Part shown: positions 1 through 30,427 of the stretch, one piece after another
How positions within the stretch are numbered: position 1 is the stretch's first letter
Layout: each line of letters starts with the position of its first letter
Origin: Escherichia coli
GTDB taxonomy: Bacteria; Pseudomonadota; Gammaproteobacteria; Enterobacterales; Enterobacteriaceae
Assembly: GCF_022846255.1 (NCBI RefSeq)
Contig: NZ_AP025682.1
Strand: one strand, 5' to 3'
Length of the DNA: 64,000 nucleotides
The notes under the pieces: generated by a model
The model's input: the letters and a program-made list of their open reading frames with translations, nothing else
Database searches by the model: none
What the model was told of the DNA's origin: nothing
Made by a program: the position numbers and the translations under genes

Positions 1-1
1 A

Positions 2-550
2 ATGCAATACAACCATGACGAAACGAAAGCCAAAGCCGAATGGGATAAAGTGACGAGCAAACCCACCAGCCTGACGTTTCTCTATTCTGATAATGATCCG
101 AACTGGGAACCGATCGCTCTGGCGACACAATCCAGTCTCAACAAGCTGGGCATCAATGTGAAGCTGGAAAAGCTGGCGAACGCCACCATGCGCGACAGAG
201 TGGGTAAAGGTGATTACGACATCGCGATTGGCAACTGGAGTCCGGATTTTGCCGACCCGTATATGTTTATGAATTACTGGTTTGAGTCAGACAAAAAAGG
301 TCTGCCGGGTAACCGCTCGTTCTATGAAAACAGTGAGGTCGATAAGCTACTGCGCAATGCGCTAGCGACCACCGACCAGACGCAGCGTACCCGGGACTAC
401 CAGCAGGCACAGAAAATCGTCATTGATGACGCTGCTTATGTGTACCTGTTCCAGAAAAACTACCAACTGGCGATGAACAAAGAGGTGAAAGGCTTTGTGT
501 TCAATCCCATGCTGGAACAGGTCTTCAATATCAATACCATGAGTAAATAA
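2..550 (+). CDS. ddpA: D,D-dipeptide ABC transporter periplasmic binding protein, C-terminal 182 aa (5' end outside window)
   Basis: ORF runs off the window start; family-5 SBP C-terminal sequence; followed by ddpBCDF in operon order. Confidence 0.85.
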   Translation: MQYNHDETKAKAEWDKVTSKPTSLTFLYSDNDPNWEPIALATQSSLNKLGINVKLEKLANATMRDRVGKGDYDIAIGNWSPDFADPYMFMNYWFESDKKGLPGNRSFYENSEVDKLLRNALATTDQTQRTRDYQQAQKIVIDDAAYVYLFQKNYQLAMNKEVKGFVFNPMLEQVFNINTMSK

Positions 551-551
551 C

Positions 552-1574
552 GTGACCTTCTGGAGTATTTTACGCCAACGCTGCTGGGGGCTGGTGCTCG
601 TGGTGGCGGGCGTCTGTGTGATAACGTTTATTATCTCGCACCTGATCCCCGGCGATCCGGCGCGGTTACTGGCGGGTGACCGCGCCAGCGATGCTATCGT
701 GGATAATATTCGCCAGCAACTGGGACTGGACCAGCCACTGTACGTACAGTTTTACCGCTACGTCAGCGACCTGTTTCAGGGTGACCTAGGAACATCCATT
801 CGTACCGGGCGTCCGGTGCTGGAAGAGTTGCGCATATTTTTCCCGGCGACGCTGGAACTGGCTTTTTGTGCCCTGCTGCTGGCACTCCTGATTGGCATCC
901 CGCTGGGCATACTCTCTGCAGTCTGGCGAAATCGCTGGCTGGATCATCTGGTGCGAATAATGGCCATTACCGGAATCTCCACACCTGCGTTCTGGCTTGG
1001 GCTGGGCGTCATTGTGCTGTTTTATGGTCATCTGCAAATTCTTCCCGGCGGCGGAAGGCTTGATGACTGGCTGGATCCACCAACGCACGTTACCGGCTTT
1101 TATCTGCTCGATGCGCTGCTTGAAGGTAACGGTGAAGTCTTCTTCAATGCGCTGCAACATCTCATCTTACCGGCATTAACGCTGGCGTTCGTTCACCTGG
1201 GAATTGTCGCTCGCCAGATCCGCTCAGCTATGCTGGAACAATTGAGTGAAGATTACATTCGTACCGCCCGGGCCAGCGGCTTGCCCGGCTGGTATATCGT
1301 TTTATGTTATGCGCTACCCAATGCGTTGATCCCCTCGATTACCGTATTGGGTCTGGCGCTGGGCGATTTGTTGTATGGCGCAGTGCTCACCGAAACCGTT
1401 TTTGCCTGGCCCGGAATGGGTGCATGGGTAGTAACATCAATACAGGCGCTCGACTTCCCGGCAGTGATGGGCTTTGCCGTCGTGGTTTCGTTTGCTTATG
1501 TGCTGGTGAACCTGGTGGTGGATTTGCTCTATTTGTGGATTGATCCGCGTATCGAACGTGGAGGTGGTGAATGA
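552..1574 (+). CDS. ddpB: D,D-dipeptide ABC transporter permease
   Basis: 340-aa polytopic membrane ORF with GTG start 1 nt after the ddpA stop; DppB-like permease. Confidence 0.9.
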   Translation: MTFWSILRQRCWGLVLVVAGVCVITFIISHLIPGDPARLLAGDRASDAIVDNIRQQLGLDQPLYVQFYRYVSDLFQGDLGTSIRTGRPVLEELRIFFPATLELAFCALLLALLIGIPLGILSAVWRNRWLDHLVRIMAITGISTPAFWLGLGVIVLFYGHLQILPGGGRLDDWLDPPTHVTGFYLLDALLEGNGEVFFNALQHLILPALTLAFVHLGIVARQIRSAMLEQLSEDYIRTARASGLPGWYIVLCYALPNALIPSITVLGLALGDLLYGAVLTETVFAWPGMGAWVVTSIQALDFPAVMGFAVVVSFAYVLVNLVVDLLYLWIDPRIERGGGE

Positions 1575-2467
1575 TGCTAAGCGAGGAAACGTCAGCCGTG
1601 CGCCCACCAAAACAAACGCGATTTAACGGTGCAAAACTGGTATGGATGCTGAAAGGCAGCCCGCTTACCGTGACCGGCGCAGTCATCATTGTATTAATGC
1701 TACTGATGATGATTTTTTCACCGTGGCTGGCGACGCATGATCCCAACGCCATTGATTTAACCGCCCGCCTTTTGCCGCCTTCTGCGGCGCACTGGTTTGG
1801 CACCGATGAAGTGGGACGCGATCTGTTTAGCCGCGTACTGGTCGGCAGTCAGCAATCAATTCTCGCCGGATTAGTGGTGGTCGCCATTGCAGGTATGATG
1901 GGGTCGCTACTCGGGTGTCTATCCGGTGTGCTTGGCGGACGCGCAGACGCGATTATCATGCGCATCATGGACATTATGCTGTCGATTCCTTCGCTGGTGC
2001 TGACAATGGCACTGGCAGCCGCTCTCGGGCCGAGTTTGTTTAACGCCATGCTGGCGATTGCTATTGTGCGAATTCCCTTTTATGTGCGCCTGGCGCGGGG
2101 GCAAACATTAGTTGTCCGCCAGTACACTTACGTTCAGGCGGCGAAAACCTTTGGTGCGTCGCGTTGGCATCTGATCAACTGGCATATTTTACGTAACTCC
2201 CTGCCGCCGCTGATTGTGCAGGCATCGCTGGATATCGGTAGCGCGATTTTAATGGCCGCCACGTTGGGATTTATTGGCCTTGGTGCTCAACAACCGAGTG
2301 CTGAATGGGGGGCGATGGTGGCGAATGGTCGCAACTATGTGCTCGATCAATGGTGGTATTGCGCATTTCCGGGGGCAGCGATTTTGCTTACCGCCGTCGG
2401 GTTTAATCTCTTTGGCGATGGTATTCGCGATCTGCTTGACCCGAAAGCAGGAGGAAAGCAGTCATGA
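1571..2467 (+). CDS. ddpC: D,D-dipeptide ABC transporter permease
   Basis: 298-aa membrane ORF overlapping ddpB stop by 4 nt; DppC-like. Confidence 0.9.
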   Translation: MMLSEETSAVRPPKQTRFNGAKLVWMLKGSPLTVTGAVIIVLMLLMMIFSPWLATHDPNAIDLTARLLPPSAAHWFGTDEVGRDLFSRVLVGSQQSILAGLVVVAIAGMMGSLLGCLSGVLGGRADAIIMRIMDIMLSIPSLVLTMALAAALGPSLFNAMLAIAIVRIPFYVRLARGQTLVVRQYTYVQAAKTFGASRWHLINWHILRNSLPPLIVQASLDIGSAILMAATLGFIGLGAQQPSAEWGAMVANGRNYVLDQWWYCAFPGAAILLTAVGFNLFGDGIRDLLDPKAGGKQS

Positions 2468-3450
2468 CCCAACCCGTTCTGGACATTCAACAGCTGCATT
2501 TGAGTTTCCCCGGTTTTAACGGCGACGTTCACGCGCTCAACAATGTGTCATTGAAAATCAACCGCGGTGAAATTGTCGGTCTGGTGGGAGAATCCGGCTC
2601 GGGTAAATCAGTCACTGCAATGTTGATTATGCGTCTGTTACCGACGGGCAGTTATTGCGTACATCGGGGGCAGATTTCACTGCTGGGAGAAGATGCTCTT
2701 AACGCTCGGGAAAAGCAGCTTCGTCAGTGGCGCGGCGCACGAGTGGCGATGATCTTTCAGGAACCGATGACCGCCCTTAATCCGACACGTCGAATAGGTC
2801 TTCAGATGATGGACGTGATCCGCCATCATCAACCAATAAGTCGTCGGGAAGCCAGAGCTAAAGCGATTGCCCTGCTGGAAGAGATGCAAATCCCGGATGC
2901 CGTGGAAGTTATGTCGCGCTATCCGTTTGAGCTTTCAGGTGGTATGCGCCAGCGGGTAATGATTGCGCTGGCATTCTCCTGCGAGCCGCAATTGATTATT
3001 GCCGACGAACCGACTACGGCGCTGGACGTCACGGTACAGTTGCAGGTACTGCGTCTGCTTAAACATAAAGCCCGCGCCAGTGGAACTGCGGTACTGTTCA
3101 TCAGCCATGATATGGCCGTGGTGTCGCAACTGTGCGATAGCGTTTACGTGATGTATGCCGGAAGCGTGATTGAAAGCGGCGTGACGGCAGACGTTATCCA
3201 TCATCCCCGGCATCCGTATACCATTGGTTTGCTGCAATGCGCACCGGAACATGGAATACCGCGCCAGCCATTACTCGCTATTCCGGGGACGGTACCAAAC
3301 CTCACCCATTTGCCTGACGGCTGCGCTTTTCGCGATCGTTGCTATGCGGCAGGTGCACAGTGTGAAAACGTCCCGGTGCTAACAGCGTATGGTGACAACA
3401 ACCACCGCTGCGCCTGTTGGTATCCGCAGCAGGAGGTCATTAGTGTCTGA
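2464..3450 (+). CDS. ddpD: D,D-dipeptide ABC transporter ATP-binding protein
   Basis: 328 aa with Walker A GESGSGKS and ABC signature LSGGMRQR; 4-nt overlap with ddpC. Confidence 0.9.
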   Translation: MTQPVLDIQQLHLSFPGFNGDVHALNNVSLKINRGEIVGLVGESGSGKSVTAMLIMRLLPTGSYCVHRGQISLLGEDALNAREKQLRQWRGARVAMIFQEPMTALNPTRRIGLQMMDVIRHHQPISRREARAKAIALLEEMQIPDAVEVMSRYPFELSGGMRQRVMIALAFSCEPQLIIADEPTTALDVTVQLQVLRLLKHKARASGTAVLFISHDMAVVSQLCDSVYVMYAGSVIESGVTADVIHHPRHPYTIGLLQCAPEHGIPRQPLLAIPGTVPNLTHLPDGCAFRDRCYAAGAQCENVPVLTAYGDNNHRCACWYPQQEVISV

Positions 3451-4369
3451 TACATTATTAACGTTACGCGACGTCCATATCAATTTCCCTGCCCGAAAAA
3501 ACTGGCTTGGTAAAACTACGGAACATGTTCATGCCATCAATGGTATTGATTTACAGATCCGTCGTGGTGAAACCTTAGGGATCGTCGGTGAGTCAGGCTG
3601 CGGCAAAAGCACCCTCGCACAGCTTTTAATGGGTATGCTGCAACCGAGCCACGGGCAGTACATCCGTTCAGGATCACAACGCATTATGCAGATGGTGTTT
3701 CAGGACCCGCTCTCTTCGCTTAATCCGCGCTTACCGGTGTGGCGCATCATCACGGAACCGCTCTGGATTGCTAAGCGTAGTAGTGAACAACAGCGGCGAG
3801 CGTTGGCAGAGGAGCTGGCTGTGCAGGTGGGTATTCGTCCGGAGTATCTCGACCGCTTGCCTCATGCGTTTTCCGGCGGGCAGCGGCAACGTATCGCCAT
3901 TGCCAGAGCACTCTCTTCGCAGCCTGACGTGATTGTGCTTGATGAACCAACCTCGGCGCTGGATATCTCCGTGCAGGCGCAGATCCTCAATTTACTGGTA
4001 ACGCTACAGGAAAATCGCGAGCTGACTTATGTGCTGATTTCACACAATGTCTCCGTGATACGTCATATGAGCGATCGGGTGGCGGTGATGTATCTCGGAC
4101 AGATTGTGGAACTAGGAGACGCGCAACAGGTGCTGACAGCTCCGGCACATCCATACACCCGATTATTGCTGGATTCCCTCCCCGCCATTGATAAACCGCT
4201 GGAGGAAGAATGGGCATTACGTAAAACGGATCTGCCGGGAAACCGCACGTTTCCGCAAGGCTGTTTTTTCTACGAACGTTGCCCTCTGGCAACCCACGGA
4301 TGTGAAGTCCGACAATCATTAGCAATAAGGGAGGACGGACGTGAGCTCCGGTGCTGGCGGGCGCTGTAG
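3443..4369 (+). CDS. ddpF: D,D-dipeptide ABC transporter ATP-binding protein
   Basis: ORF track extends to 3389, but the conserved protein begins VSDTLLTLRD at a GTG preceded by aggagg and overlapping the ddpD stop; Walker A GESGCGKS and signature FSGGQRQR. Confidence 0.85.
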   Translation: MSDTLLTLRDVHINFPARKNWLGKTTEHVHAINGIDLQIRRGETLGIVGESGCGKSTLAQLLMGMLQPSHGQYIRSGSQRIMQMVFQDPLSSLNPRLPVWRIITEPLWIAKRSSEQQRRALAEELAVQVGIRPEYLDRLPHAFSGGQRQRIAIARALSSQPDVIVLDEPTSALDISVQAQILNLLVTLQENRELTYVLISHNVSVIRHMSDRVAVMYLGQIVELGDAQQVLTAPAHPYTRLLLDSLPAIDKPLEEEWALRKTDLPGNRTFPQGCFFYERCPLATHGCEVRQSLAIREDGRELRCWRAL

Positions 4370-4424
4370 AGATGCTAACAACGCATCAGGCATTCACGCG
4401 CCTGACGCGTCATCCGGCAATGCT

Positions 4425-4856
4425 TTACGATTTCAACTGGTAATCCAGCGTAATTTCCGCTTTCAGTACCTGAGAGACCGGGCATCCTGCTTTTGCTTTC
4501 TGGATAATGCCGTCAAAAGTAGAGGCATCAATACCCGGCACCGCAACTTCGCTCTTCAGTGCGATTTTAGTAATCGCAAAACCGGCATCCACTTTATCCA
4601 GCGAGACATCGGCGGTGGTATCAATCGATGTTGGCGTGAATCCCGCTTCCCCCAGCATTAATGAAAGCGCCATTGAGAAACATGCGGCATGCGCTGCGCC
4701 AATCAGTTCTTCAGGGTTGGTTCCTTTTTCGCCTTCAAAACGCGTGTTAAATCCATACGGCTGTTGGTTCAGCACGCCGCTCTCAGTAGATACTGTTCCC
4801 TTCCCGCGTTTGATATCGCCTTCCCAGTGTGCCTGACCTTTCTTATGGATTGTCAT
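4425..4856 (-). CDS. osmC: osmotically inducible peroxiredoxin OsmC
   Basis: 143-aa ORF matching remembered OsmC sequence (MTIHKKGQAHWEGD...). Confidence 0.95.
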   Translation of the reverse strand: MTIHKKGQAHWEGDIKRGKGTVSTESGVLNQQPYGFNTRFEGEKGTNPEELIGAAHAACFSMALSLMLGEAGFTPTSIDTTADVSLDKVDAGFAITKIALKSEVAVPGIDASTFDGIIQKAKAGCPVSQVLKAEITLDYQLKS

Positions 4857-5200
4857 TGTTGCTCTCCTGTGGGCTTAAAAAGGAAATTATAGACTACGTG
4901 AGAAACAGCACGAGGATAAGCAGGATAATCCGAATAAAATCCGGCGAAAATATAATTCCTGCACTTAAATTAAATTTCCACAATAGATAACCGGAAATAT
5001 ATAACTCAAGAGATATTGCATCAATATCAATCAACTCATCACAATAATAATACCTATCAATATCATGGAGTTAAAATATAAAAATCATCAACCAGGACTA
5101 ATCTTAACAACGAAGCGGCAAATATTTGCCATGCTGAATGTGCTTTATAAATCTGCGATCCGTAGCAGACACCATAAATACACAGACACGGAGAATCACT

Positions 5201-9133: not shown

Positions 9134-9787
9134 TTATATCCCTTCTTCACTCTCTTTTTTCGCTTCTGCCTTCTCGATTTCACGATACCAGCGCGGATGG
9201 TGTTTCTTCGCCCAGCGACGGCTCACCTTCCCTTCGATCATCCCTTTAATCGATCCTTTCACCCAGAATGCCATATACATATGGATCAGGATGGCGTGGA
9301 TCAGGATGATACCCGCAGCCGCGTGAATCAGCAGGCTATAACGGACAACCTGTATCGGGAAGTACTGCGCAAAGTACGGACGCCAGATAATCACCCCGGT
9401 CACCAGCAGCACGAAAATCATGCTCATGATCGACCAGAACATCATCTTTTGCCCGGCGTTGTACTTACCGACATCCGCCACTTTATGCTCATTGCCTTTC
9501 AATACTTCGACAATGTTCAACAGCCACGGAATATCTTTCTTATCCGGGATGTTGTGATGCACAAAACGCACAAACATAAACATCAGTGCGACGAAAATCG
9601 CAATGCCGAAGAACGGGTGCAAAATGCGTCCCATCTGCGGCGTACCGAAGGTTTGCGTCAGCCATTGCAGCGTCGGGAAGAAGAACGAAATCCCGGACAG
9701 CGCCACCAGGAAGAAGCAAATCACCACGGTCCAGTGACAGGCGCGATCAATAAACTTGGTGCGCACAATCATTTTCGACTTACTCAT
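9134..9787 (-). CDS. fdnI: formate dehydrogenase-N cytochrome b556 (gamma) subunit
   Basis: 217-aa membrane protein beginning [19 protein letters not shown]; 8-nt overlap with fdnH. Confidence 0.95.
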
Positions 9788-10676: not shown

Positions 10677-13600
10677 TTACGCCTTCTCGATGTTGACTAA
10701 GAACGCTTTATATTCCGGCGTTTGCGAGTTTGCATCACCGACATTCGGCGTCAGAGTGTTAGCGATATAACCTTTACGCGCGACACCCTCAAAGCCCCAG
10801 TGGATCGGAATACCCACCGTTTCAACCTGCTGACCGTTTACATTCAGCGGTTTCAGACGGCGCGTTACCACCGCCACCGCGCGGATAAAGCCACGCTTGC
10901 TTGAGACAGTGACACGATCGCCATTATTAATGCCTTTCGCCGCCGCCAGCGTTTCGCTGATTTCCACAAACTGTTCCGGCTGAGCAATTGCGTTGAGCAA
11001 CGCGTGCTTGGTCCAGGTGTGGAAGTGCTCGGTCAGACGATAGGTCGTACCCACATACGGGAACTGCTCTTTTTTACCCATCCGCAGCGCGTCTTGTTCA
11101 TACAGACGAACGACCGGGTTAGACACCACGTTCGGATGCAGCGGGTTAGTGCCCAGCGGCGTTTCAATCGGCTCGTAGTGTTCCGGGAACGGACCTTCCG
11201 CCATTTTGTTGATGGCAAACAGGCGTCCCATCCCTTCCGGCTGCATGATAAACGGTCCGGTTGGTGTACCTGGCGCGGCATTGCCGAAGTCCGGAATATC
11301 GTTACCCGTCCACTTGCTGCCGTTCCACTGAATCAGCATCCGTTTCGGATCCCACGGTTTACCGTTGATATCCGCCGAAGCACGGTTGTAGAGTACGCGA
11401 CGGTTGAGCGGCCACGCCCAGGCCCATCCCAGCGTATTCCCCAGACCAGATGGGTCAGAGTTATCGCGGTTAGCCATCTGGTTGCCCTGCTCTGTCCAGC
11501 TACCGGTGTAGATCCAGCAAGACGATGCGGTTGTACCGTCATCACGCAGATGCGCAAAGCTACTCAGCAACTGACCTTTCTTCGCAATCAGCACGCCATT
11601 GGCATCATAGAGATCTTCCAGCGCGTAGCCGTTGTTCTCTTTCGCTACTTCGTCAGATTGCGGTTCGTGCGGCTGCTTGTAGTTCCAGCTCATCTTCATC
11701 AGCGGTTCTACGCCTTTACCACCCTCGGCCTGGTACAGCTCGCGCAGATGATGGTAGATACCCGCCAGAATTTCGCCGTCGTTACGTGCTTCGCCCGGCG
11801 CGTCCTGACCTTTCCAGTGCCACTGCAACCAGCGACCGGAGTTAGCGATAGAACCATCTTCTTCAGCAAAGCAGGTCGAAGGCAGACGGAATACTTCAGT
11901 CTGAATAGATGCCGGATCGACATCGTTCGACTCGCCGTGGTTCTGCCAGAAGGTAGAGGTTTCAGTCACCAGCGGATCGATAACCACCATGTACTTCAGT
12001 TTGCTCAGGCAGCTCACCACTTTGTTTTTGTCCGGGAAGGACGCAACCGGGTTAAAGCCCTGGCAGAAATAACCGGTGACTTTGCCTTCGTCCATCATGT
12101 TGAAATACTTGATGACGTCGTAGGTCTGGTCCCACTTCGGCAGCCAGTCGTAGCCCCAGTTGTTCTCTTTCTGCGCGGCATCGCCGTAGAAAGATTTCAT
12201 CAGGCTAACGAAAAACTTCGGATAGTTGCTCCAGTAGTTCACCTGATCAGCCAGCGTCGCTTTCGGCGTGTTCGCTTCCAGATACGACTGCAAATCAACC
12301 TGTTTTTCTGACGGCAGCGTCAGATAACCTGGCAGGCTGGTAGAGAGCAGGCCTAAGTCAGTCAGGCCCTGAATGTTGGAGTGACCACGCAATGCGTTCA
12401 CGCCGCCACCGGCCATACCCATGTTACCGAGCAGCAACTGGATCATCGCCATCGTACGGATGTTCTGCGCACCCACGGTGTGCTGCGTCCAGCCCAGCGC
12501 GTACAGGAAGGTGGTTGTGCGATCCGGTGCGCTGGTGGAGGCCAGCACTTCACACACTTTCAGGAAGTCGGCTTTTGGCGTACCGCAAATGTTTTCTACT
12601 ACGTCCGGCGTGTAGCGGGAAACGTGCGCTTTCAGCAGATTCCATACACAGCGCGGATGAGTCAGCGTGTCATCGCGTTTCGCATAGCCGTTTTCATCGA
12701 ACTGATAGTTCCAGGACGACTTATCGTATTGACGTTTTTCAGCGTCGTAGCCGCTGAACAGACCGTCTTCGAAAGCAAAATCATCACGCACCAGCAGGCT
12801 GGCGTTGGTGTAATGCTTAACGTATTCGGCGTTGATTTTGTTGTTTTCGATCAGGTAGCGCAAAACGCCAGACAGGAACGTAATGTCCGTACCGGAACGA
12901 ATAGGTGCGTAAATATCCGCCACAGAAGCGGTACGCGTAAAACGGGGATCGACAACGATCAAGGTTGCATCGTTGTTGTTTTTCGCTTCCATCGCCCAGC
13001 GGAAACCGACGGGATGCGCTTCAGCAGCGTTACCGCCCATCACCATTACGACGTTAGCGTTTTTGATATCCACCCAGTGGTTGGTCATCGCACCGCGACC
13101 AAATGTTGGAGCAAGACTTGCTACCGTTGGTCCGTGTCAGACGCGCGCCTGGTTGTCTACCGCCAGCATCCCGAGGGAGCGGGCAAATTTTTGAGTCAGC
13201 ATCCCGGTTTCGTTGCTGGCACCGGAAGCACACAGCATACCGGTAGAAAGCCAACGGTTTACCGTTACGCCCTGCTCGTTCTTTTCAATAAAGTTAGCGT
13301 CACGGTCGGCTTTCATCAGCTTCGCAATACGGGAGAATGCTTCTTCCCAGCTAATGCGCTGCCATTTGTCAGAACCTGGCGCACGATATTCCGGGTAGCG
13401 CAGACGGTTTTCGCTGTTGACGTAATCCAGCAAACCGGCCCCTTTCGGGCACAGCGCACCACGGCTTACCGGATGATCCGGGTCACCTTCAATGTGATAA
13501 ATCGCTTCTCTGGCGTTTTTCGCGCCATCACCCAGGCTATACATCAATAGCCCGCAACCTACGGAACAGTATGTGCAGGTGTTACGGATCTCTTTCGCGC

Positions 13601-13724
13601 GTAATAATTTGTAGTTTCGCGCCTGAGCCAGTGCTTGCTTCGGGGCAAAGCCCAATGCTGCTACTGTTGTTCCCGCCATACCGCCCGCGCAGATTTTAAA
13701 AAATTGTCTGCGACTGACGTCCAT
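10677..13724 (-). CDS. fdnG: formate dehydrogenase-N catalytic (alpha) subunit, selenocysteine-containing
   Basis: Two track ORFs (13137..13724 and 10677..13088) are in the same frame, separated only by a TGA at 13137..13139; N-terminus MDVSRRQFFKICAGG is a twin-arginine signal; total 1016 codons. Confidence 0.95.
13089..13136 (-). other. region expected to carry the SECIS stem-loop directing Sec insertion at the fdnG UGA
   Basis: Immediately 3' of the in-frame UGA on the mRNA; inferred from bacterial selenoprotein biology, structure not folded here. Confidence 0.5.
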
Positions 13725-13956: not shown

Positions 13957-14838
13957 ATGACACGACAAAAAGCAACGCTCATAGGGCTAATAGCGATCGT
14001 CCTGTGGAGCACGATGGTAGGATTGATTCGCGGTGTCAGTGAGGGACTCGGCCCGGTCGGCGGCGCAGCTGCTATCTATTCATTAAGCGGGCTGCTGTTA
14101 ATCTTCACGGTTGGATTTCCGCGTATTCGGCAGATCCCGAAAGGCTATTTACTCGCCGGGAGTCTGTTATTCGTCAGCTATGAAATCTGTCTGGCGCTTT
14201 CCTTAGGGTATGCGGCGACCCGTCATCAGGCGATTGAAGTGGGGATGGTGAACTATCTGTGGCCCAGCCTGACAATTCTCTTTGCCATTCTGTTTAATGG
14301 TCAGAAAACCAACTGGCTGATTGTACCAGGATTATTATTAGCCCTGGTCGGCGTCTGCTGGGTGTTAGGCGGTGACAATGGGTTACATTATGATCAAATT
14401 ATTAATAATATCACCACCAGCCCATTGAGTTATTTCCTGGCGTTCATTGGGGCGTTTATCTGGGCAGCCTACTGCACAGTAACGAATAAATACGCACGCG
14501 GATTTAACGGAATTACCGTTTTTGTCCTGCTAACGGGAGCAAGTCTGTGGGTTTACTATTTTCTTACGCCACAACCAGAAATGGTATTTAGCACGCCCGT
14601 CATGATTAAACTCATCTCTGCGGCATTTACCTTAGGATTTGCTTATGCTGCATGGAATGTCGGTATATTACATGGCAACGTCACCATAATGGCGGTAGGT
14701 TCGTATTTTACGCCCGTCCTTTCCTCAGCGCTTGCAGCCGTGCTGCTCAGCGCCCCGCTGTCGTTCTCGTTCTGGCAAGGCGCGCTAATGGTCTGCGGCG
14801 GTTCCCTGCTCTGCTGGCTGGCGACACGTCGTGGCTAA
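13957..14838 (+). CDS. yddG: aromatic amino acid exporter (DMT family)
   Basis: 293-aa polytopic membrane protein matching remembered YddG. Confidence 0.9.
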   Translation: MTRQKATLIGLIAIVLWSTMVGLIRGVSEGLGPVGGAAAIYSLSGLLLIFTVGFPRIRQIPKGYLLAGSLLFVSYEICLALSLGYAATRHQAIEVGMVNYLWPSLTILFAILFNGQKTNWLIVPGLLLALVGVCWVLGGDNGLHYDQIINNITTSPLSYFLAFIGAFIWAAYCTVTNKYARGFNGITVFVLLTGASLWVYYFLTPQPEMVFSTPVMIKLISAAFTLGFAYAAWNVGILHGNVTIMAVGSYFTPVLSSALAAVLLSAPLSFSFWQGALMVCGGSLLCWLATRRG

Positions 14839-15110
14839 AATAATTGTCGGGTCTACGGCCCGGCAGTTAATCAGATAAATTCTGACAATATTAAAAAATA
14901 AATTTCAAATACCAGAAAGTCATTTTAGTTACATTTAGTAACACATATCTGTCTGTTTATTCCACATTCTGCCCCCGCAGTTACGCTTTCTTATCTATTC
15001 TTCTAATCAGCACTTCACCTGATTCATCCTTAATTCTAATAACTGGCTATTGCGCCTTACCTCCTGTTTTGTCTTTTTTTCATTACCAATGTGTGCATGT
15101 GAGGAACAAT

Positions 15111-16499
15111 ATGGCACTGCAAAATGAGAAAAATAGTCGTTATCTTTTACGCGACTGGAAACCAGAAAATCCGGCCTTCTGGGAAAATAAAGGAAAGCAT
15201 ATTGCACGAAGAAACCTCTGGATATCAGTCAGTTGCCTACTTCTTGCCTTCTGTGTCTGGATGCTATTTAGCGCAGTTACTGTTAATCTCAATAAAATCG
15301 GTTTTAATTTCACTACCGATCAACTCTTTTTATTAACCGCATTACCCTCCGTTTCTGGCGCATTATTGCGTGTCCCCTACTCCTTTATGGTGCCTATATT
15401 CGGTGGACGCCGATGGACGGTTTTTAGTACTGCAATCCTGATTATTCCTTGCGTCTGGCTCGGAATTGCCGTGCAAAATCCGAATACCCCTTTTGGGATA
15501 TTTATCGTTATCGCTTTGCTATGCGGTTTTGCAGGTGCGAACTTTGCTTCGAGCATGGGCAATATCAGTTTCTTCTTTCCAAAAGCCAAACAAGGGAGCG
15601 CTCTTGGGATTAATGGCGGATTAGGAAACTTAGGTGTAAGTGTGATGCAGCTGGTTGCACCGCTGGTCATTTTTGTCCCCGTATTTGCCTTTCTCGGCGT
15701 CAATGGCGTACCGCAGGCCGACGGTTCGGTGATGTCGCTGGCGAATGCCGCATGGATTTGGGTGCCATTACTGGCGATTGCCACGATCGCCGCCTGGTCA
15801 GGGATGAATGATATCGCCAGTTCACGCGCCTCAATTGCCGACCAGCTCCCTGTCTTGCAACGCCTGCATCTCTGGCTGCTGAGCCTGCTTTATCTTGCCA
15901 CCTTCGGTTCGTTTATCGGTTTTTCTGCGGGTTTTGCCATGCTGGCAAAAACCCAGTTCCCGGATGTGAATATTCTGCGCCTGGCGTTCTTTGGCCCATT
16001 TATCGGTGCCATCGCGCGATCGGTTGGTGGTGCTATTTCCGATAAATTCGGCGGCGTGCGGGTGACGTTGATCAACTTCATTTTTATGGCGATTTTCAGC
16101 GCCCTGCTGTTCCTTACCTTACCGGGCACAGGCTCCGGTAATTTCATCGCATTTTACGCCGTATTTATGGGGCTGTTTCTGACCGCGGGTCTGGGAAGTG
16201 GTTCTACTTTCCAGATGATCGCCGTCATCTTTCGCCAGATAACAATTTATCGGGTGAAGATGAAAGGCGGTAGTGATGAGCAAGCTCAAAGAGAAGCCGT
16301 CACCGAAACGGCAGCCGCTCTGGGCTTTATCTCAGCCATTGGCGCAGTGGGCGGCTTTTTTATTCCGCAGGCGTTTGGCATGTCGCTCAATATGACCGGC
16401 TCTCCGGTGGGCGCGATGAAAGTGTTTTTAATCTTCTACATCGTTTGTGTGCTACTGACCTGGCTGGTTTATGGTCGGCGGAAGTTCAGCCAAAAATAA
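15111..16499 (+). CDS. narU: nitrate/nitrite transporter (MFS)
   Basis: 462-aa product beginning MALQNEKNSRYLLRDWKPENPAFWENKGK; NarK-like. Confidence 0.95.
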   Translation: MALQNEKNSRYLLRDWKPENPAFWENKGKHIARRNLWISVSCLLLAFCVWMLFSAVTVNLNKIGFNFTTDQLFLLTALPSVSGALLRVPYSFMVPIFGGRRWTVFSTAILIIPCVWLGIAVQNPNTPFGIFIVIALLCGFAGANFASSMGNISFFFPKAKQGSALGINGGLGNLGVSVMQLVAPLVIFVPVFAFLGVNGVPQADGSVMSLANAAWIWVPLLAIATIAAWSGMNDIASSRASIADQLPVLQRLHLWLLSLLYLATFGSFIGFSAGFAMLAKTQFPDVNILRLAFFGPFIGAIARSVGGAISDKFGGVRVTLINFIFMAIFSALLFLTLPGTGSGNFIAFYAVFMGLFLTAGLGSGSTFQMIAVIFRQITIYRVKMKGGSDEQAQREAVTETAAALGFISAIGAVGGFFIPQAFGMSLNMTGSPVGAMKVFLIFYIVCVLLTWLVYGRRKFSQK

Positions 16500-16530: not shown

Positions 16531-16593
16531 ACAACCGTGTCTCATCCGACAAGGCATCAGATCCCAATTCATTCCTGGAGCAGGAGTTATGTC

Positions 16594-19500
16594 ATGAGTA
16601 AACTTTTGGATCGCTTTCGCTACTTCAAACAAAAGGGCGAAACCTTTGCCGATGGTCACGGACAGGTGATGCATAGCAACCGCGACTGGGAGGACAGCTA
16701 TCGCCAGCGTTGGCAGTTCGACAAAATCGTGCGTTCCACCCACGGTGTTAACTGTACAGGCTCCTGCAGCTGGAAAATCTACGTTAAAAATGGTCTGGTG
16801 ACCTGGGAAATCCAACAGACCGACTACCCGCGCACTCGCCCTGACCTGCCAAATCATGAACCTCGCGGCTGCCCGCGTGGCGCAAGTTACTCCTGGTATC
16901 TCTACAGCGCTAACCGCCTGAAATACCCGCTCATTCGTAAACGACTGATTGAACTGTGGCGCGAAGCCCTCAAACAACACAGCGATCCGGTACTGGCGTG
17001 GGCATCGATTATGAACGATCCGCAAAAGAGCCTGAGCTACAAACAAGTGCGTGGACGCGGTGGCTTTATCCGCTCCAACTGGCAGGAGCTAAATCAGCTG
17101 ATTGCCGCCGCTAACGTCTGGACCATCAAAACTTACGGCCCGGATCGCGTTGCCGGTTTCTCGCCGATTCCGGCGATGTCGATGGTTTCTTACGCCGCCG
17201 GAACACGCTATCTGTCGTTGTTAGGTGGCACCTGTTTAAGCTTCTACGACTGGTATTGCGACCTGCCGCCCGCCTCGCCGATGACCTGGGGCGAGCAAAC
17301 CGACGTACCGGAATCTGCCGACTGGTATAACTCCAGTTACATCATCGCCTGGGGGTCTAACGTACCGCAGACACGTACGCCGGACGCCCATTTCTTTACC
17401 GAAGTACGCTACAAAGGCACTAAAACCATCGCCATTACCCCTGACTACTCTGAAGTGGCCAAATTGTGCGACCAGTGGCTGGCACCGAAACAAGGCACTG
17501 ATAGTGCCCTGGCAATGGCAATGGGCCATGTCATTTTAAAAGAGTTTCATCTCGATAATCCCAGCGATTATTTTATCAACTACTGCCGCCGCTACAGCGA
17601 CATGCCGATGCTGGTAATGCTGGAACCTCGCGACGACGGCAGCTACGTTCCCGGGCGCATGGTCCGCGCATCTGACCTGGTGGATGGACTGGGCGAAAGC
17701 AATAATCCGCAGTGGAAAACCGTGGCAGTTAATACCGCAGGTGAATTGGTAGTGCCGAACGGTTCGATTGGTTTTCGCTGGGGAGAAAAAGGCAAATGGA
17801 ACCTGGAATCCATTGCCGCCGGTACGGAAACCGAATTGTCGTTAACCCTGCTCGGTCAACATGACGCCGTTGCAGGCGTGGCCTTCCCCTACTTTGGCGG
17901 CATTGAAAATCCACATTTTCGCAGCGTAAAACACAATCCTGTCCTGGTGCGCCAATTGCCCGTTAAAAACCTGACATTAGCCGATGGTAGCACCTGTCCG
18001 GTGGTCAGCGTTTATGATTTGGTACTGGCGAATTACGGCCTCGATCGCGGGCTGGAAGATGAAAACAGCGCGAAAGATTACGCTGAAATCAAACCTTATA
18101 CCCCTGCCTGGGGCGAGCAAATTACCGGCGTTCCGCGCCAGTATATTGAAACCATCGCCCGTGAATTTGCCGATACCGCCCATAAAACGCATGGGCGCTC
18201 GATGATTATTCTCGGCGCAGGTGTTAACCACTGGTATCACATGGACATGAACTACCGCGGGATGATCAATATGCTGATCTTCTGCGGTTGTGTCGGGCAA
18301 AGCGGTGGCGGCTGGGCACACTATGTCGGTCAGGAAAAACTGCGCCCGCAAACCGGCTGGCTGCCTCTGGCCTTTGCGCTCGACTGGAACCGACCACCGC
18401 GCCAGATGAACAGCACCTCGTTTTTCTACAATCACTCCAGCCAGTGGCGCTATGAAAAAGTCACCGCGCAGGAATTGCTCTCACCGCTCGCCGATGCCAG
18501 TAAATACAGCGGTCACCTGATTGATTTCAACGTTCGCGCCGAACGTATGGGCTGGCTACCTTCTGCGCCGCAGCTGGGGCGTAACCCGCTCTCCCTGAAA
18601 GCCGAAGCCGACAAGGCCGGATTGTCACCCGCCGAATTTACCGTCCAGGCACTGAAGTCAGGCGAATTACGCATGGCCTGCGAACAGCCGGACAACGGCA
18701 GCAACCATCCGCGTAACCTGTTTGTCTGGCGTTCAAACCTGCTTGGCTCTTCCGGCAAGGGCCACGAGTATATGCAGAAGTATCTGCTGGGTACGAAAAG
18801 TGGCATTCAGGGGGAAGAACTTGGACCGACGGAGGGAATCCAACCAGAAGAAGTCGAGTGGCAAACTGCGGCGATTGAAGGCAAGCTCGACCTGCTGGTG
18901 ACGCTCGACTTCCGCATGTCCAGTACCTGCCTGTTCTCCGATATCGTTCTGCCCACCGCCACCTGGTACGAAAAAGACGATATGAATACCTCGGATATGC
19001 ATCCATTTATTCATCCGCTTTCTGCGGCGGTCGATCCGGCGTGGGAATCACGCAGCGACTGGGAAATCTACAAAGGTATCGCTAAAGCCTTTTCGCAAGT
19101 GTGCATAGGGCATCTCGGCAAAGAAACCGACGTGGTATTACAACCACTGCTGCATGACTCCCCGGCAGAGCTTTCACAGCCGTGTGAAGTGCTCGACTGG
19201 CGCAAAGGTGAATGCGATCTGATTCCAGGCAAAACCGCGCCGAATATTGTGGCGGTGGAGCGCGACTACCCTGCTACCTATGAACGCTTTACCTCACTCG
19301 GGCCATTGATGGACAAACTTGGCAACGGCGGTAAAGGGATTTCGTGGAATACCCAGGATGAAATTGATTTCCTCGGTAAACTCAATTACACCAAGCGTGA
19401 TGGCCCGGCAAAGGGGCGTCCGCTGATTGACACCGCCATTGACGCATCAGAAGTGATTCTGGCACTGGCACCGGAAACCAACGGCCATGTTGCAGTCAAA

Positions 19501-20334
19501 GCGTGGCAAGCGCTGGGCGAGATCACCGGACGCGAACATACCCATCTGGCGCTGCACAAAGAGGACGAGAAGATTCGCTTTCGCGATATTCAGGCGCAGC
19601 CGCGTAAAATTATCTCCAGCCCCACATGGTCTGGTCTGGAAAGCGATCACGTTTCCTATAACGCGGGATACACCAACGTTCATGAGTTAATTCCGTGGCG
19701 CACGCTGTCAGGACGCCAGCAACTCTATCAGGATCATCCGTGGATGCGTGCTTTTGGTGAAAGTCTGGTGGCTTATCGCCCGCCTATCGACACCCGTAGC
19801 GTCAGTGAAATGCGCCAGATACCGCCAAACGGCTTCCCGGAGAAAGCCCTTAACTTCCTGACGCCGCACCAGAAATGGGGCATTCACTCAACCTACAGTG
19901 AAAACCTGCTAATGCTGACGCTCTCTCGCGGTGGACCGATTGTCTGGCTCAGCGAAACCGATGCCCGTGAACTGACCATTGTCGATAACGACTGGGTGGA
20001 AGTGTTTAACGCCAATGGCGCGCTGACTGCCCGCGCGGTGGTCAGCCAGCGTGTACCGCCGGGCATGACCATGATGTATCACGCTCAGGAACGCATTATG
20101 AATATTCCTGGTTCGGAAGTAACTGGCATGCGCGGCGGCATTCATAACTCGGTCACCCGCGTTTGTCCGAAACCAACGCATATGATTGGCGGTTACGCGC
20201 AGCTGGCCTGGGGCTTTAACTACTACGGCACCGTCGGCTCAAACCGCGACGAATTCATCATGATCCGCAAGATGAAGAACGTTAACTGGCTGGATGATGA
20301 AGGTCGCGATCAGGTACAGGAGGCGAAAAAATGA
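16594..20334 (+). CDS. narZ: respiratory nitrate reductase Z alpha subunit
   Basis: 1246-aa product beginning MSKLLDRFRYFKQKGETFADGHGQ (track ORF starts earlier at 16471); molybdopterin oxidoreductase. Confidence 0.95.
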   Translation: MSKLLDRFRYFKQKGETFADGHGQVMHSNRDWEDSYRQRWQFDKIVRSTHGVNCTGSCSWKIYVKNGLVTWEIQQTDYPRTRPDLPNHEPRGCPRGASYSWYLYSANRLKYPLIRKRLIELWREALKQHSDPVLAWASIMNDPQKSLSYKQVRGRGGFIRSNWQELNQLIAAANVWTIKTYGPDRVAGFSPIPAMSMVSYAAGTRYLSLLGGTCLSFYDWYCDLPPASPMTWGEQTDVPESADWYNSSYIIAWGSNVPQTRTPDAHFFTEVRYKGTKTIAITPDYSEVAKLCDQWLAPKQGTDSALAMAMGHVILKEFHLDNPSDYFINYCRRYSDMPMLVMLEPRDDGSYVPGRMVRASDLVDGLGESNNPQWKTVAVNTAGELVVPNGSIGFRWGEKGKWNLESIAAGTETELSLTLLGQHDAVAGVAFPYFGGIENPHFRSVKHNPVLVRQLPVKNLTLADGSTCPVVSVYDLVLANYGLDRGLEDENSAKDYAEIKPYTPAWGEQITGVPRQYIETIAREFADTAHKTHGRSMIILGAGVNHWYHMDMNYRGMINMLIFCGCVGQSGGGWAHYVGQEKLRPQTGWLPLAFALDWNRPPRQMNSTSFFYNHSSQWRYEKVTAQELLSPLADASKYSGHLIDFNVRAERMGWLPSAPQLGRNPLSLKAEADKAGLSPAEFTVQALKSGELRMACEQPDNGSNHPRNLFVWRSNLLGSSGKGHEYMQKYLLGTKSGIQGEELGPTEGIQPEEVEWQTAAIEGKLDLLVTLDFRMSSTCLFSDIVLPTATWYEKDDMNTSDMHPFIHPLSAAVDPAWESRSDWEIYKGIAKAFSQVCIGHLGKETDVVLQPLLHDSPAELSQPCEVLDWRKGECDLIPGKTAPNIVAVERDYPATYERFTSLGPLMDKLGNGGKGISWNTQDEIDFLGKLNYTKRDGPAKGRPLIDTAIDASEVILALAPETNGHVAVKAWQALGEITGREHTHLALHKEDEKIRFRDIQAQPRKIISSPTWSGLESDHVSYNAGYTNVHELIPWRTLSGRQQLYQDHPWMRAFGESLVAYRPPIDTRSVSEMRQIPPNGFPEKALNFLTPHQKWGIHSTYSENLLMLTLSRGGPIVWLSETDARELTIVDNDWVEVFNANGALTARAVVSQRVPPGMTMMYHAQERIMNIPGSEVTGMRGGIHNSVTRVCPKPTHMIGGYAQLAWGFNYYGTVGSNRDEFIMIRKMKNVNWLDDEGRDQVQEAKK

Positions 20335-21875
20335 AAATACGTTCGCAAGTCGGCATGGTGCTTAACCTCGATAAATGTATCGGCTGCCATACCTGTTCGG
20401 TGACCTGTAAAAACGTCTGGACCGGACGCGAAGGCATGGAGTACGCATGGTTTAACAACGTCGAAACCAAACCGGGCATTGGTTATCCGAAAAACTGGGA
20501 AGATCAGGAAGAGTGGCAAGGCGGCTGGGTGCGTGATGTGAATGGCAAGATCCGCCCGCGTCTGGGCAGCAAGATGGGCGTAATAACCAAAATCTTCGCC
20601 AACCCGGTGGTGCCGCAGATTGATGATTACTACGAACCTTTCACCTTCGACTACGAACATTTGCATAGCGCACCGGAAGGCAAACATATCCCTACTGCTC
20701 GCCCGCGTTCACTGATTGACGGCAAACGGATGGACAAAGTGATCTGGGGGCCAAACTGGGAAGAATTGTTGGGCGGCGAATTCGAAAAACGCGCCCGTGA
20801 CCGCAACTTCGAGGCCATGCAAAAGGAGATGTACGGGCAGTTTGAAAACACCTTCATGATGTACCTGCCGCGCTTGTGCGAACACTGCCTCAATCCCAGT
20901 TGCGTGGCGACCTGCCCAAGCGGCGCTATCTACAAACGCGAAGAAGACGGCATTGTGCTGATCGATCAGGATAAATGCCGTGGCTGGCGTTTGTGCATTA
21001 GCGGTTGTCCGTACAAAAAAATCTACTTCAACTGGAAAAGCGGCAAGTCAGAAAAATGTATCTTCTGTTACCCACGAATTGAGTCAGGCCAACCCACCGT
21101 GTGCTCAGAAACCTGCGTGGGTCGCATCCGGTATCTGGGCGTGCTGCTTTACGACGCCGACCGCATCGAGGAAGCGGCGAGCACCGAGCGCGAAGTTGAC
21201 CTCTATGAACGCCAGTGCGAAGTGTTCCTCGATCCGCACGATCCCTCAGTGATCGAAGAAGCCCTGAAACAAGGTATTCCACAAAACGTGATTGACGCTG
21301 CCCAGCGTTCGCCAGTCTACAAAATGGCAATGGACTGGAAACTGGCGCTACCGCTGCACCCTGAATACCGCACCCTGCCGATGGTCTGGTACGTTCCGCC
21401 GCTGTCACCGATTCAGTCCTACGCTGATGCGGGAGGTTTGCCGAAAAGCGAAGGCGTGCTGCCCGCCATCGAAAGCCTGCGTATTCCGGTGCAATATCTC
21501 GCCAATATGTTGAGTGCCGGTGATACCGGTCCGGTACTGCGGGCGCTGAAACGGATGATGGCGATGCGCCACTATATGCGTTCACAAACCGTGGAAGGCG
21601 TTACTGATACTCGTGCCATCGACGAAGTAGGTCTGAGCGTCGCCCAGGTCGAAGAGATGTATCGTTACCTCGCCATTGCCAACTATGAAGACCGTTTTGT
21701 CATCCCGACAAGCCATCGGGAAATGGCGGGCGATGCCTTCGCAGAACGCAACGGCTGCGGTTTTACCTTTGGCGACGGTTGCCACGGCTCGGACAGCAAA
21801 TTCAACCTGTTCAACAGTAGCCGTATCGATGCCATCAACATCACCGAAGTGCGCGACAAAGCGGAGGGCGAATAA
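20331..21875 (+). CDS. narY: respiratory nitrate reductase Z beta subunit (Fe-S)
   Basis: 514 aa with multiple Cys clusters; 4-nt overlap with narZ stop. Confidence 0.95.
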   Translation: MKIRSQVGMVLNLDKCIGCHTCSVTCKNVWTGREGMEYAWFNNVETKPGIGYPKNWEDQEEWQGGWVRDVNGKIRPRLGSKMGVITKIFANPVVPQIDDYYEPFTFDYEHLHSAPEGKHIPTARPRSLIDGKRMDKVIWGPNWEELLGGEFEKRARDRNFEAMQKEMYGQFENTFMMYLPRLCEHCLNPSCVATCPSGAIYKREEDGIVLIDQDKCRGWRLCISGCPYKKIYFNWKSGKSEKCIFCYPRIESGQPTVCSETCVGRIRYLGVLLYDADRIEEAASTEREVDLYERQCEVFLDPHDPSVIEEALKQGIPQNVIDAAQRSPVYKMAMDWKLALPLHPEYRTLPMVWYVPPLSPIQSYADAGGLPKSEGVLPAIESLRIPVQYLANMLSAGDTGPVLRALKRMMAMRHYMRSQTVEGVTDTRAIDEVGLSVAQVEEMYRYLAIANYEDRFVIPTSHREMAGDAFAERNGCGFTFGDGCHGSDSKFNLFNSSRIDAINITEVRDKAEGE

Positions 21876-22570
21876 TGCAGATCCTCAAAGTGATCGGCCT
21901 GTTGATGGAGTATCCGGACGAGCTGTTATGGGAATGTAAGGAGGACGCGCTGGCGTTGATCCGCCGCGACGCACCGATGCTTACGGATTTTACCCGCAAC
22001 CTGCTTAACGCGCCGCTGCTGGATAAACAGGCCGAATGGTGCGAAGTGTTTGACCGTGGACGTACCACATCGCTGCTGCTGTTCGAACATGTTCATGCCG
22101 AGTCCCGCGATCGCGGCCAGGCAATGGTGGACCTGCTGGCGGAGTATGAAAAGGTCGGTCTGCAACTGAATTGTAGGGAACTGCCCGATTATCTACCGCT
22201 GTATCTGGAGTATTTAAGCGTACTTCCGGACGATCAGTCGAAAGAAGGATTACTCAACGTTGCGCCGATCCTCGCCCTGCTTGGCGGACGCTTAAAACAA
22301 CGCGAGGCACCGTGGTACGCGTTATTTGACGCCCTGTTGCAACTGGCAGGAAGCCCTCTGTCAAGTGACAGCGTCACAAAACAGATTCGCAGTGAAGAGC
22401 GTGACGACACCCGCCAGGCGCTGGATGCCGTGTGGGAAGAAGAACAGGTGAAGTTTATTGAAGATAACGCCACGGCGTGTGACAGCTCGCCGCTTAATCA
22501 ATATCAGCGACGCTTTAGCCAGGATGTCGCGCCGCAGTATGTCGACATCAGTGCGGGAGGTGGGAAATGA
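21875..22570 (+). CDS. narW: nitrate reductase Z assembly chaperone (delta)
   Basis: 231 aa immediately after narY, NarJ-like. Confidence 0.9.
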
Positions 22571-28418: not shown

Positions 28419-28432
28419 ATTTACTGCATACC

Positions 28433-28455
28433 GGGCAGGTATCCTGCCCTTTTTT
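28433..28455 (+). terminator. Rho-independent terminator after the sulfatase gene
   Basis: gggcagg-tat-cctgccc hairpin followed by a T6 run. Confidence 0.6.
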
Positions 28456-28464
28456 GGTTAAAAA

Positions 28465-29562
28465 ATGGCTGAACGAAGAAAAACGCATCACTCATGGAAA
28501 ACCCGCCGCGATATGGTTATTCGCGGCATGACGATTAGTTTGCCATGGTTTGCTTTTATCAATGTCAGTTTTGCATTGATAATTTTGCTGCGCCGTGTTC
28601 TGTTTAATGACCTTACTCCACCCTGGTTAAATGAAAAAAGCCTTATACATTCTATTGATATATCTGCAACGGGTATTCTGCTGATTTGCAGTGGTTTACT
28701 ACTCATCCCTCGGCAAAAAACATTACCTATCCAGGTGCTATTAGTTGCCCTGAGCCTGCTATGGTCATGGTGTAGTTATCACTTTATTGCGTACTGGACG
28801 CTGCAGTTTGCTTATCCACTATGTGTATTATTAATGCTTAGTGGCGTTGTCGCACTTTATTTCCATACCCCATCATTGCTCGCATTTGTCATTCCCTTAT
28901 GGTTCACCACTCCAATAGCGAGTCTTATGCTTAATCAACAGATCAATATTCATTTTGCTGTTGTATGGTGTATTTTTTCACTGGCGCTATATGGTGGGCG
29001 ACTCATTTTGTTACGTTGGTTTGAAGAAGCATGGGTACAAAACAGTTATAACAACCAGTTAATTAATCGCCTTGATGCATTAGCACATCGCGATCCTTTA
29101 ACTGGGATAGCAAACCGACGTGCAATGAACAGTATCTTACACGACGCGATGGATAACGGCGGGTCATTTGCTCTTATTATGCTGGATGTCGATTTTTTTA
29201 AACGTTACAACGACACTTACGGGCATCCTGCTGGGGATCGTTGTCTAATACAAGTTGCCGACGCTCTACAGCGTTCAACTCGCCAGTCGGAGGATGTTGT
29301 TGTCCGTTATGGTGGCGAAGAGTTTGCCATCATACTTTTTAATGCAACATTGCCGGAAGCAGAGACGGTAGCAGCCAGAGTGAAGCAAGAACTTAAACTG
29401 GCAGCTATCCCACATCAGGCATCTGCTGTTAATGCATTCGTTACGGTTAGTCAGGGGATTACCTGTTCTGCTCCCGCAAAAACGGCTGAACAAATTATTT
29501 CAGATGCCGACGCTGCGTTATACCGGGCGAAAGAAAGTGGGCGAAATCGATGGGCTTTATAA
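28465..29562 (+). CDS. membrane-anchored diguanylate cyclase (GGDEF domain)
   Basis: 365 aa: about 190-aa N-terminal region with several predicted TM helices, then GGDEF domain with active-site RYGGEEF; precise start codon uncertain (several in-frame Met). Confidence 0.8.
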   Translation: MAERRKTHHSWKTRRDMVIRGMTISLPWFAFINVSFALIILLRRVLFNDLTPPWLNEKSLIHSIDISATGILLICSGLLLIPRQKTLPIQVLLVALSLLWSWCSYHFIAYWTLQFAYPLCVLLMLSGVVALYFHTPSLLAFVIPLWFTTPIASLMLNQQINIHFAVVWCIFSLALYGGRLILLRWFEEAWVQNSYNNQLINRLDALAHRDPLTGIANRRAMNSILHDAMDNGGSFALIMLDVDFFKRYNDTYGHPAGDRCLIQVADALQRSTRQSEDVVVRYGGEEFAIILFNATLPEAETVAARVKQELKLAAIPHQASAVNAFVTVSQGITCSAPAKTAEQIISDADAALYRAKESGRNRWAL

Positions 29563-30328: not shown

Positions 30329-30348
30329 ATGGAAAAGAGAGTAATACA

Positions 30349-30364
30349 CTGATTTTTAACGCAG
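30349..30364 (+). promoter_or_regulatory. candidate LexA (SOS) box upstream of the symE-like gene
   Basis: CTG-N10-CAG (ctgatttttaacgcag) with AT-rich spacer about 65 bp upstream of the ATG; deviates from CTGT/ACAG at two conserved positions; K-12 symE is SOS-regulated. Confidence 0.25.
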
Positions 30365-30427
30365 ATTGCCAGTGCTACCAACACTGACAATCTGCTCACC
30401 ACAAGCAACTAACAGAGGTAGTTAATC

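Follow-up and report, generated by a model that had tools for sequence, protein, structure and literature searches.

Short overlaps between the stop codon of one gene and the codon that starts the next are a known and catalogued feature and the commonest same-strand spacing in bacteria and archaea, and −4, −1, and −8 nucleotides (nt) have been reviewed as the three spacing classes enriched in all prokaryotes (Brown and Wade, 2025). Spacing is given here as (downstream start − upstream stop end) − 1, such that negative values denote overlap. In reporter assays, four of five native Escherichia coli pairs at −4 were translationally coupled, usually in a Shine-Dalgarno-dependent manner, bioB-bioF being the uncoupled pair (Huber et al., 2019). 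Introduced spacing of 14–38 nt abolished coupling, and short spacings were 4.5-fold enriched for subunits of heteromeric complexes (30.4% vs. 6.8%; Huber et al., 2023), while the reinitiation coefficient was threefold higher at −4 (Tian and Salis). We examined such junctions in a 64,000-nt stretch of E. coli DNA (contig NZ_AP025682.1, assembly GCF_022846255.1; hereafter the window), where they join consecutive cistrons of ddpXABCDF, narUZYWV, and ydcSTUV-patD, and also of fdnGHI, tehAB, and mnaT-ydcZ. With a probability of about 80%, these are ordinary short stop/start overlaps.

Every ddp, nar, and ydc pair is already listed for K-12 with identical spacing, including −11 for ydcU-ydcV, and most are flagged as complex subunits (Table S2 of Huber et al., 2023). 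By our analysis, the junction architecture in the window is exactly of the class in which coupling has been demonstrated in E. coli, and we think it rather probable that coupling is real at most of these junctions.

Junctions of the ddp, nar, and ydc Operons

The first-pass annotation of the window had described overlaps of 1–8 nt or abutting stop and start codons within ddpB/C/D/F, narZ/Y/W/V, and ydcV/U. Direct reading of the sequence confirms overlaps or abutments in all three operons, and the two junctions quoted as examples, ATGA at ddpC-ddpD and TAATG at narY-narW, are exact. The size range holds for the ddp and nar genes but not for ydcU-ydcV, which overlap by 11 nt, and the interval 552–4369 that had been assigned to the whole set spans ddpB-ddpF only, as the nar junctions lie at 20.3–22.6 kb and those of ydc at 45–46 kb on the minus strand.

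At these junctions the stop and start codons have nucleotides in common or directly adjoin, with a Shine-Dalgarno sequence mostly at working distance within the upstream gene. On the plus strand, ddpB (552–1574), encoding an ATP-binding cassette (ABC) permease, begins with a GTG located 1 nt past the ddpA stop (TAA c GTG, 548–554, with the ddpA TAA at 548–550; spacing +1) and is without a Shine-Dalgarno sequence. The ATG of the second ABC permease gene, ddpC (1571–2467), overlaps the ddpB stop as ATGA at 1571–1574 (−4), with GGAGG (1560–1564) 6 nt upstream, and the ATG of the ATPase gene ddpD (2464–3450) overlaps the ddpC stop in the same way at 2464–2467 (−4), with AGGAGG (2449–2454) 9 nt upstream. 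The second ATPase gene, ddpF (3443–4369), starts with GTG inside the end of ddpD, the shared nucleotides at 3443–3450 reading GTGTCTGA (−8), and has AGGAGG (3431–3436) 6 nt upstream. The nar junctions, also on the plus strand, are narU-narZ (+81), narZ-narY (ATGA, 20331–20334, −4; AGGAGG at 20318–20323), narY-narW (TAATG, 21873–21877, −1; GGAGG at 21863–21867), and narW-narV (ATGA, 22567–22570, −4; GGGAGG at 22555–22560). On the minus strand, the ydc junctions are ydcS-ydcT (+17), ydcT-ydcU (TGAATG, 45925–45920, abutting at 0, with GAGGAGAGG upstream at 45934–45926), ydcU-ydcV (ATGCACTCTGA, 44991–44981, −11; GGGAG at 45002–44998), and ydcV-patD (+21); the −11 spacing lies slightly outside the common classes of −8, −4, −1, and 0 to +6.

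The NTGA motif is in itself trivial, any TGA stop without a preceding C making one, and the non-trivial part is that long, homology-supported open reading frames (ORFs) start exactly at it. Both members of each pair are real genes: the junction genes share 97–99% DNA identity with annotated E. coli genes, the ORFs are all intact with lengths as in K-12, and Pfam domains are present in all 10 proteins tested. Of the 12 junctions in the ddp, nar, and ydc operons, eight fall within −8 to +6, compared to 707 of 2987 same-strand pairs (24%) in E. coli (binomial P = 0.0019), an enrichment that is as expected for operons of complex subunits. Across the window, about 11 of about 35 same-strand neighbor pairs are close-spaced (hand count), near the genome-wide proportion, and therefore the window as a whole is not unusual.

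Shine-Dalgarno sequences of the GGAG type lie 6–9 nt upstream, within the upstream gene, at nine overlapped or abutting starts. Duplexes with the anti-Shine-Dalgarno sequence of −9 kcal/mol or below are predicted at 8 of 12 close-spaced starts, compared to 0.8% of random window positions, and the mean duplex energy is −8.6 kcal/mol at close-spaced starts vs. −6.3 kcal/mol at the other starts of the window (P = 0.04). Because these sequences are embedded in the last codons of the upstream genes, the encoded proteins carry Gly/Glu-rich C-terminal tails, such as ...RGGGE in DdpB, ...AGGKQS in DdpC, ...AGGGK in NarW, and ...KAEGE in NarY. The exception is ddpB, with its GTG start and no Shine-Dalgarno sequence (−2.2 kcal/mol), which is also the least structured site.

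Spacings of +1 or less leave no space for a terminator and a promoter between genes, and promoter-like and terminator-like sites in 1–4900 are no commoner than in shuffled sequence. The operon name ddpXABCDF is in use in the literature.

An automated search for pairs of long ORFs that join at −14 to +3 added junctions that the first pass had not listed, namely fdnH-fdnI (9780–9787, minus strand, −8), mnaT-ydcZ (41421–41424, plus strand, ATGA, −4, with a weak Shine-Dalgarno sequence), tehA-tehB (57743–57746, minus strand, ATGA, −4), and two hypothetical ORFs (31093–31100, −8). A separate observation concerns the narZ start, where 16589–16597 reads ATGTCATGA, a mini-ORF of two codons (Met-Ser-stop), the TGA of which overlaps the narZ ATG as ATGA. 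This mini-ORF is probably fortuitous, and the Shine-Dalgarno spacing favors the narZ ATG.

Translational Coupling and Independent Initiation

The coupled translation that had been proposed for these junctions is plausible and, in our assessment, partly supported. In such a mechanism, a ribosome terminating on the upstream gene would cover the downstream ribosome-binding site and remove local RNA structure. The terminating ribosome, or its small (30S) subunit, retained at the Shine-Dalgarno sequence close by, might then restart at the overlapping start (termination-reinitiation), or, by an alternative route, a fresh 30S subunit might bind in the gap left behind. Either route would tie downstream output to upstream flux and leave no exposed untranslated gap, and the most likely case is a mix of local reinitiation and ribosome-assisted fresh initiation. 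The likely benefit is that transporter and reductase subunits are made in rough proportion to one another. Since ddpB has a GTG start without a Shine-Dalgarno sequence, 1 nt past the ddpA stop, it is the junction likeliest to depend on reinitiation.

Several points weigh against coupling at these junctions, or against reinitiation as its route. When the ribosome recycling factor was depleted, neither coupling nor, across the genome, the density ratios of overlapped pairs changed, a result that speaks against reinitiation as the chief route. Relative translation is about as variable in overlapped as in non-overlapped pairs (Burkhardt, 2017), and overlap is no guarantee of coupling, as bioB-bioF shows (Huber et al., 2019). 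A literature search on narZYWV and translational coupling found nothing. The description of the products as complex subunits is borne out by Pfam for DdpB/C/D/F, NarZ/Y/V, and YdcT/U/V, but NarW is an assembly chaperone and not a stoichiometric subunit. No extra RNA structure was found at close-spaced starts, the predicted opening energy being 9.0 vs. 8.5 kcal/mol (P = 0.34). Finally, the paralogous dppB-dppC (+9) and dppC-dppD (+10) junctions have no overlap, and the junctions between narH-type and narJ-type genes (beta-J) and between narJ-type and narI-type genes (J-gamma) reach +7 to +48 in other genera.

On these grounds, one might regard the overlaps as a by-product of genome compaction and of the easy evolution of NTGA, each downstream gene being initiated by a fresh 30S subunit at its own Shine-Dalgarno sequence with no meaningful coupling. 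Strong and well-spaced Shine-Dalgarno sequences could suffice for this, the recycling factor data favor fresh initiation, the uncoupled bioB-bioF pair and the variable translation ratios are in line with it, and the abundance of −4 has been ascribed to ease of evolution (Brown and Wade, 2025); moreover, the dpp operon and several nar operons work at spacings of +7 to +48. However, four of the five native −4 pairs tested in E. coli were coupled, complex subunits are enriched 4.5-fold among short spacings, and independent initiation should be poor at ddpB, with its GTG start and no Shine-Dalgarno sequence. The nar operons of other genera also speak against it. Among six such operons retrieved by tblastn against plasmids and chromids, with K-12 narGH alongside, the junction between the alpha and beta subunit genes is −4 in K-12 narGH, Duffyella, Burkholderia, Cupriavidus, and Ralstonia, and +11 in Thermus. 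The −4 spacing is kept in four beta- and gammaproteobacterial genera other than that of E. coli, although their sequences have diverged; junctions of the beta-J and J-gamma types, by comparison, span −4 to +48. We thus consider wholly independent initiation unlikely as a general account of these junctions. In the sixth of these operons, on Moraxella osloensis plasmid pSKB0120-1 (1902–2201), the annotated end of the alpha gene is 298 nt short of narH, but the narH ATG has a TAA about 13 nt upstream; this 3′-end annotation looks doubtful, or the gene is disrupted.

The type of coupling that works by RNA unfolding, with the downstream site sequestered by pairing with the upstream coding sequence, was considered as well and is not seen for the group as a whole by in silico folding (P = 0.34). 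Individual sites with a high predicted opening cost are narV (17.0 kcal/mol, the highest), ydcT (16.1 kcal/mol), and ydcU (12.5 kcal/mol).

The one question that these junctions touch is a general one, whether coupling relies on reinitiation or on fresh initiation assisted by the ribosome. The operons in hand are poorly expressed and stress-induced and are not especially good models for this question; the ddpB start would make a reasonable native test case.

Start Codons and Reading Frames at the Junctions

Re-annotation of start codons, which the first pass had named as something that might remove the overlaps, is not indicated. Judged from sequence, the annotated start codons are supported by ORF boundaries, by the N-termini of paralogues and Pfam families, by Shine-Dalgarno spacing, and by cross-strain comparison. 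For ddpB, an in-frame stop lies 12 nt upstream of the GTG and the next in-frame start lies 42 nt downstream, inside the first transmembrane segment, and DdpB residues 7–78 match positions 5–76 of the Pfam BPD_transp_1_N profile. An in-frame stop at −3 makes an upstream start impossible for ddpC, and its second ATG (1574) would overlap ddpB as well (−1); similarly, in ydcU an in-frame stop comes 3 nt before the annotated ATG. In the case of ddpF, an in-frame TAA directly precedes the GTG in four of the five further E. coli strains in the comparison, K-12 included, whereas this position reads TTA in the window and in its closest relative, such that the mechanically delimited ORF runs 54 nt further up to an ATG at 3389 (62-nt overlap). 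Because of this TAA, GTG 3443 is the first start possible across all six sequences, and the ATG at 3389 is very probably not used as a start.

Alignments with paralogues begin at residues 1–4 for NarZ/NarG, NarY/NarH, NarW/NarJ, and NarV/NarI, and N-termini agree within 3 residues for DdpB/DppB and DdpD/DppD. The N-terminus of NarY, MKIRSQVG, is identical to that of NarH, and the beta-subunit start MK(I/V)R is kept from E. coli to Thermus, across phyla. Pfam N-terminal domains start 2–6 residues from the annotated starts, and NarV residues 6–225 match positions 1–217 of the Nitrate_red_gam profile.

The opposite view, that the overlaps are annotation artefacts and the true starts lie further downstream in genes that do not overlap, could appeal to in-frame alternatives within 30 nt downstream of several starts (narY +24; narW +15, +27, and +30; ydcU +6 and +15; ddpC +3 and +27; fdnI +15 and +21), and experimentally determined N-termini for these poorly expressed proteins were not found. 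However, even with the alternatives at ddpC +3 and ydcU +6, an overlap or a mere 6-nt gap would result, and the conserved N-termini, the correct Shine-Dalgarno spacing of the annotated starts, and the TAA before the ddpF GTG all run against it. We therefore reject it as highly improbable.

Comparison among six E. coli strains that are 96–99% identical to the window shows that the start codons, stop codons, and Shine-Dalgarno cores are unchanged. The ddpC-ddpD junction is invariant in six E. coli strains and the ydcU-ydcV junction is identical in three, and strain M6 ends ddpD with TAA instead of TGA, the same base change giving Asn for Asp at DdpF residue 3, with the overlap kept. However, 7 of 152 columns vary in the junction windows vs. 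6.2% over the whole ddp region, so conservation there does not exceed that of the remainder of the operon, and within-species conservation is uninformative on selection.

The last alternative is that some junctions are frameshift sites giving fusion proteins, for which narZ-narY is the best candidate: an A6 run directly precedes the narZ stop and narY start (20322–20334: GCGAAAAAATGA; present also in three other E. coli strains), the narY frame read from the sequence is −1 relative to narZ, and AAA AAA TGA could let tRNA-Lys slip by −1 at a slow stop. Slippery runs beside stop codons promote frameshifting, and −1 shifts are stimulated by a Shine-Dalgarno sequence at 10–14 nt. Here the Shine-Dalgarno sequence is just 2 nt from the A-run, the run is not conserved, being absent from narG-narH (GTAAAATGA) and from Duffyella (GTGAAATGA), and a slippery sequence is missing from all other junctions; we know of no reported alpha-beta (NarZ-NarY) fusion. 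A programmed −1 frameshift site at narZ-narY, where no search for a downstream structure was made, is thus without comparative support and wrongly spaced, and frameshifting is the most improbable of the explanations considered. It would also surprise us greatly, if slightly less, were a slip at GCG AAA AAA TGA to give a detectable NarZ-NarY fusion or, in a milder departure from the ordinary case, were ddpB to prove strictly dependent on reinitiation, which would set a low permease-to-binding-protein ratio.

Genomic Setting and Comparison With Known Systems

The window is a segment of an E. coli chromosome matching approximately 1.50–1.56 Mb of K-12, reversed relative to the K-12 coordinates. 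Its gene order, by the RefSeq annotation of the best match and of K-12, is ddpA-B-C-D-F, osmC, bdm, sra, maeA, adhP, fdnIHG, yddG, narUZYWV, yddE ... patD-ydcVUTS-ydcR ... tehBA. Its first 6 kb is matched in 5,414 of 5,426 complete E. coli genomes at 95–99% identity. Identity to K-12 over the ddp region is 97.0%, and thus the window differs from K-12; the highest identities among the 5,426 complete genomes are 99.0% (ddp region) and 97.5% (23–46 kb).

The ddp and narZ operons are dispensable and decaying in some lineages. In strain 2012C-4502, the genome closest to the window, ddpB is a pseudogene with an internal stop, narZ is a pseudogene in strain 163, and less than 80% of the ddp region is present in about 1,064 genomes out of the 5,336 that show any match. 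The chromosomal narZ region also appears in PLSDB “plasmids” of 4.8–4.9 Mb (e.g., NZ_CP141089.1, NZ_CP134663.1, and NZ_OL790696.1), which are evidently mislabelled E. coli chromosomes, and narUZYWV occurs on smaller “plasmid” records of 34–386 kb as well.

Between the yddG stop and the narU start, the window has only 272 nt (14838–15111), at a variable islet that is empty here and holds yddL/K/J (~2.2 kb) in K-12 and a porin, leucine-rich repeat proteins, and espR1 (~4.4 kb) in O157:H7. On the minus strand, fdnG (10677–13724) contains a single in-frame TGA with an adjoining Rfam SECIS_3 element (13084–13142), the known selenocysteine codon of formate dehydrogenase-N. The region 26442–29562 encodes an alkyl-sulfatase with Lactamase_B, Alkyl_sulf_dimr, and Alkyl_sulf_C domains, along with a diguanylate cyclase of the MASE5-GGDEF type, where K-12 holds pptA-ydcC-yncI-rhsE, and it is followed on the minus strand (29636–32554) by ISAs1/H-repeat-type transposase remnants, consisting of 29636–30187 and a split copy at 31421–31720 and 31727–32554. 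An isrA-like Hfq-binding small RNA is located at 30499–30617, and the Rhs/Vgr DNA is about 6.5 kb shorter in the window than in its best-matching genomes. Between ydcO and ydcL lies, as in K-12, the IS609 TnpB-like insQ (54443–55651, minus strand; OrfB_IS605 and Cas12f1-like TNB domains).

Among paralogous systems, K-12 narGHJI shares with narZYWV the four-gene order, three overlapping junctions, and 59–79% protein identity. Its spacings are −4/−4/−1 compared to −4/−1/−4 in narZYWV, with the classes swapped, and its Shine-Dalgarno duplexes are weaker (−7.4, −5.8, and −9.5 vs. −10.3, −10.0, and −11.6 kcal/mol). Going by these sequences, overlap appears to persist between the nar paralogues, while its exact form is not conserved. 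The K-12 operons dppABCDF, potABCD, and potFGHI have the subunit types and gene order of ddp and ydc, with spacings of +307/+9/+10/−4 in dpp vs. +1/−4/−4/−8 in ddp, and of +13/−4/−4 in potABCD and +94/+9/−4 in potFGHI vs. +17/0/−11 in ydc. Spacing of −4 recurs at dppD-F, potB-C, potC-D, and potH-I. All three pot-type systems have an overlap between the two permease genes (−11, −4, and −4), whereas the ATPase-permease junction is +13 in potABCD or +9 in potFGHI vs. 0 in ydc. In agreement with this comparison, the medians for the same COG pairs in 1,695 species lie between −4 and 0, with −1 for NarG-NarY (quartiles −4 and 12), NarY-NarJ (−4 and 2), and NarJ-NarI (−4 and 11), −0.1 for DppB-DppC (−4 and 10.9), −4 for DppD-DppF (−10.4 and −4), and −3.1 for PotB-PotC (−4 and 3; Huber et al., 2023).

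Like the classical coupled pairs trpB-trpA, galT-galK, rplK-rplA, and prfA-prmC, the window pairs have close or overlapping stop and start codons, presumably in one mRNA; in the former, coupling was measured at 1.7- to 7-fold, whereas for the window pairs it is inferred only. The nearest likeness is to hyfH-hyfI, astD-astB, ydbH-ynbE, and menD-menH, E. coli pairs coupled through termination-reinitiation (Huber et al., 2019, 2023). With the ydcU-ydcV spacing of −11 just outside the −8 to +10 range used as predictive by Huber et al., the window pairs share with these the same spacing classes, Shine-Dalgarno sequences placed within the upstream gene at its 3′ end, and products that are mostly subunits of complexes.

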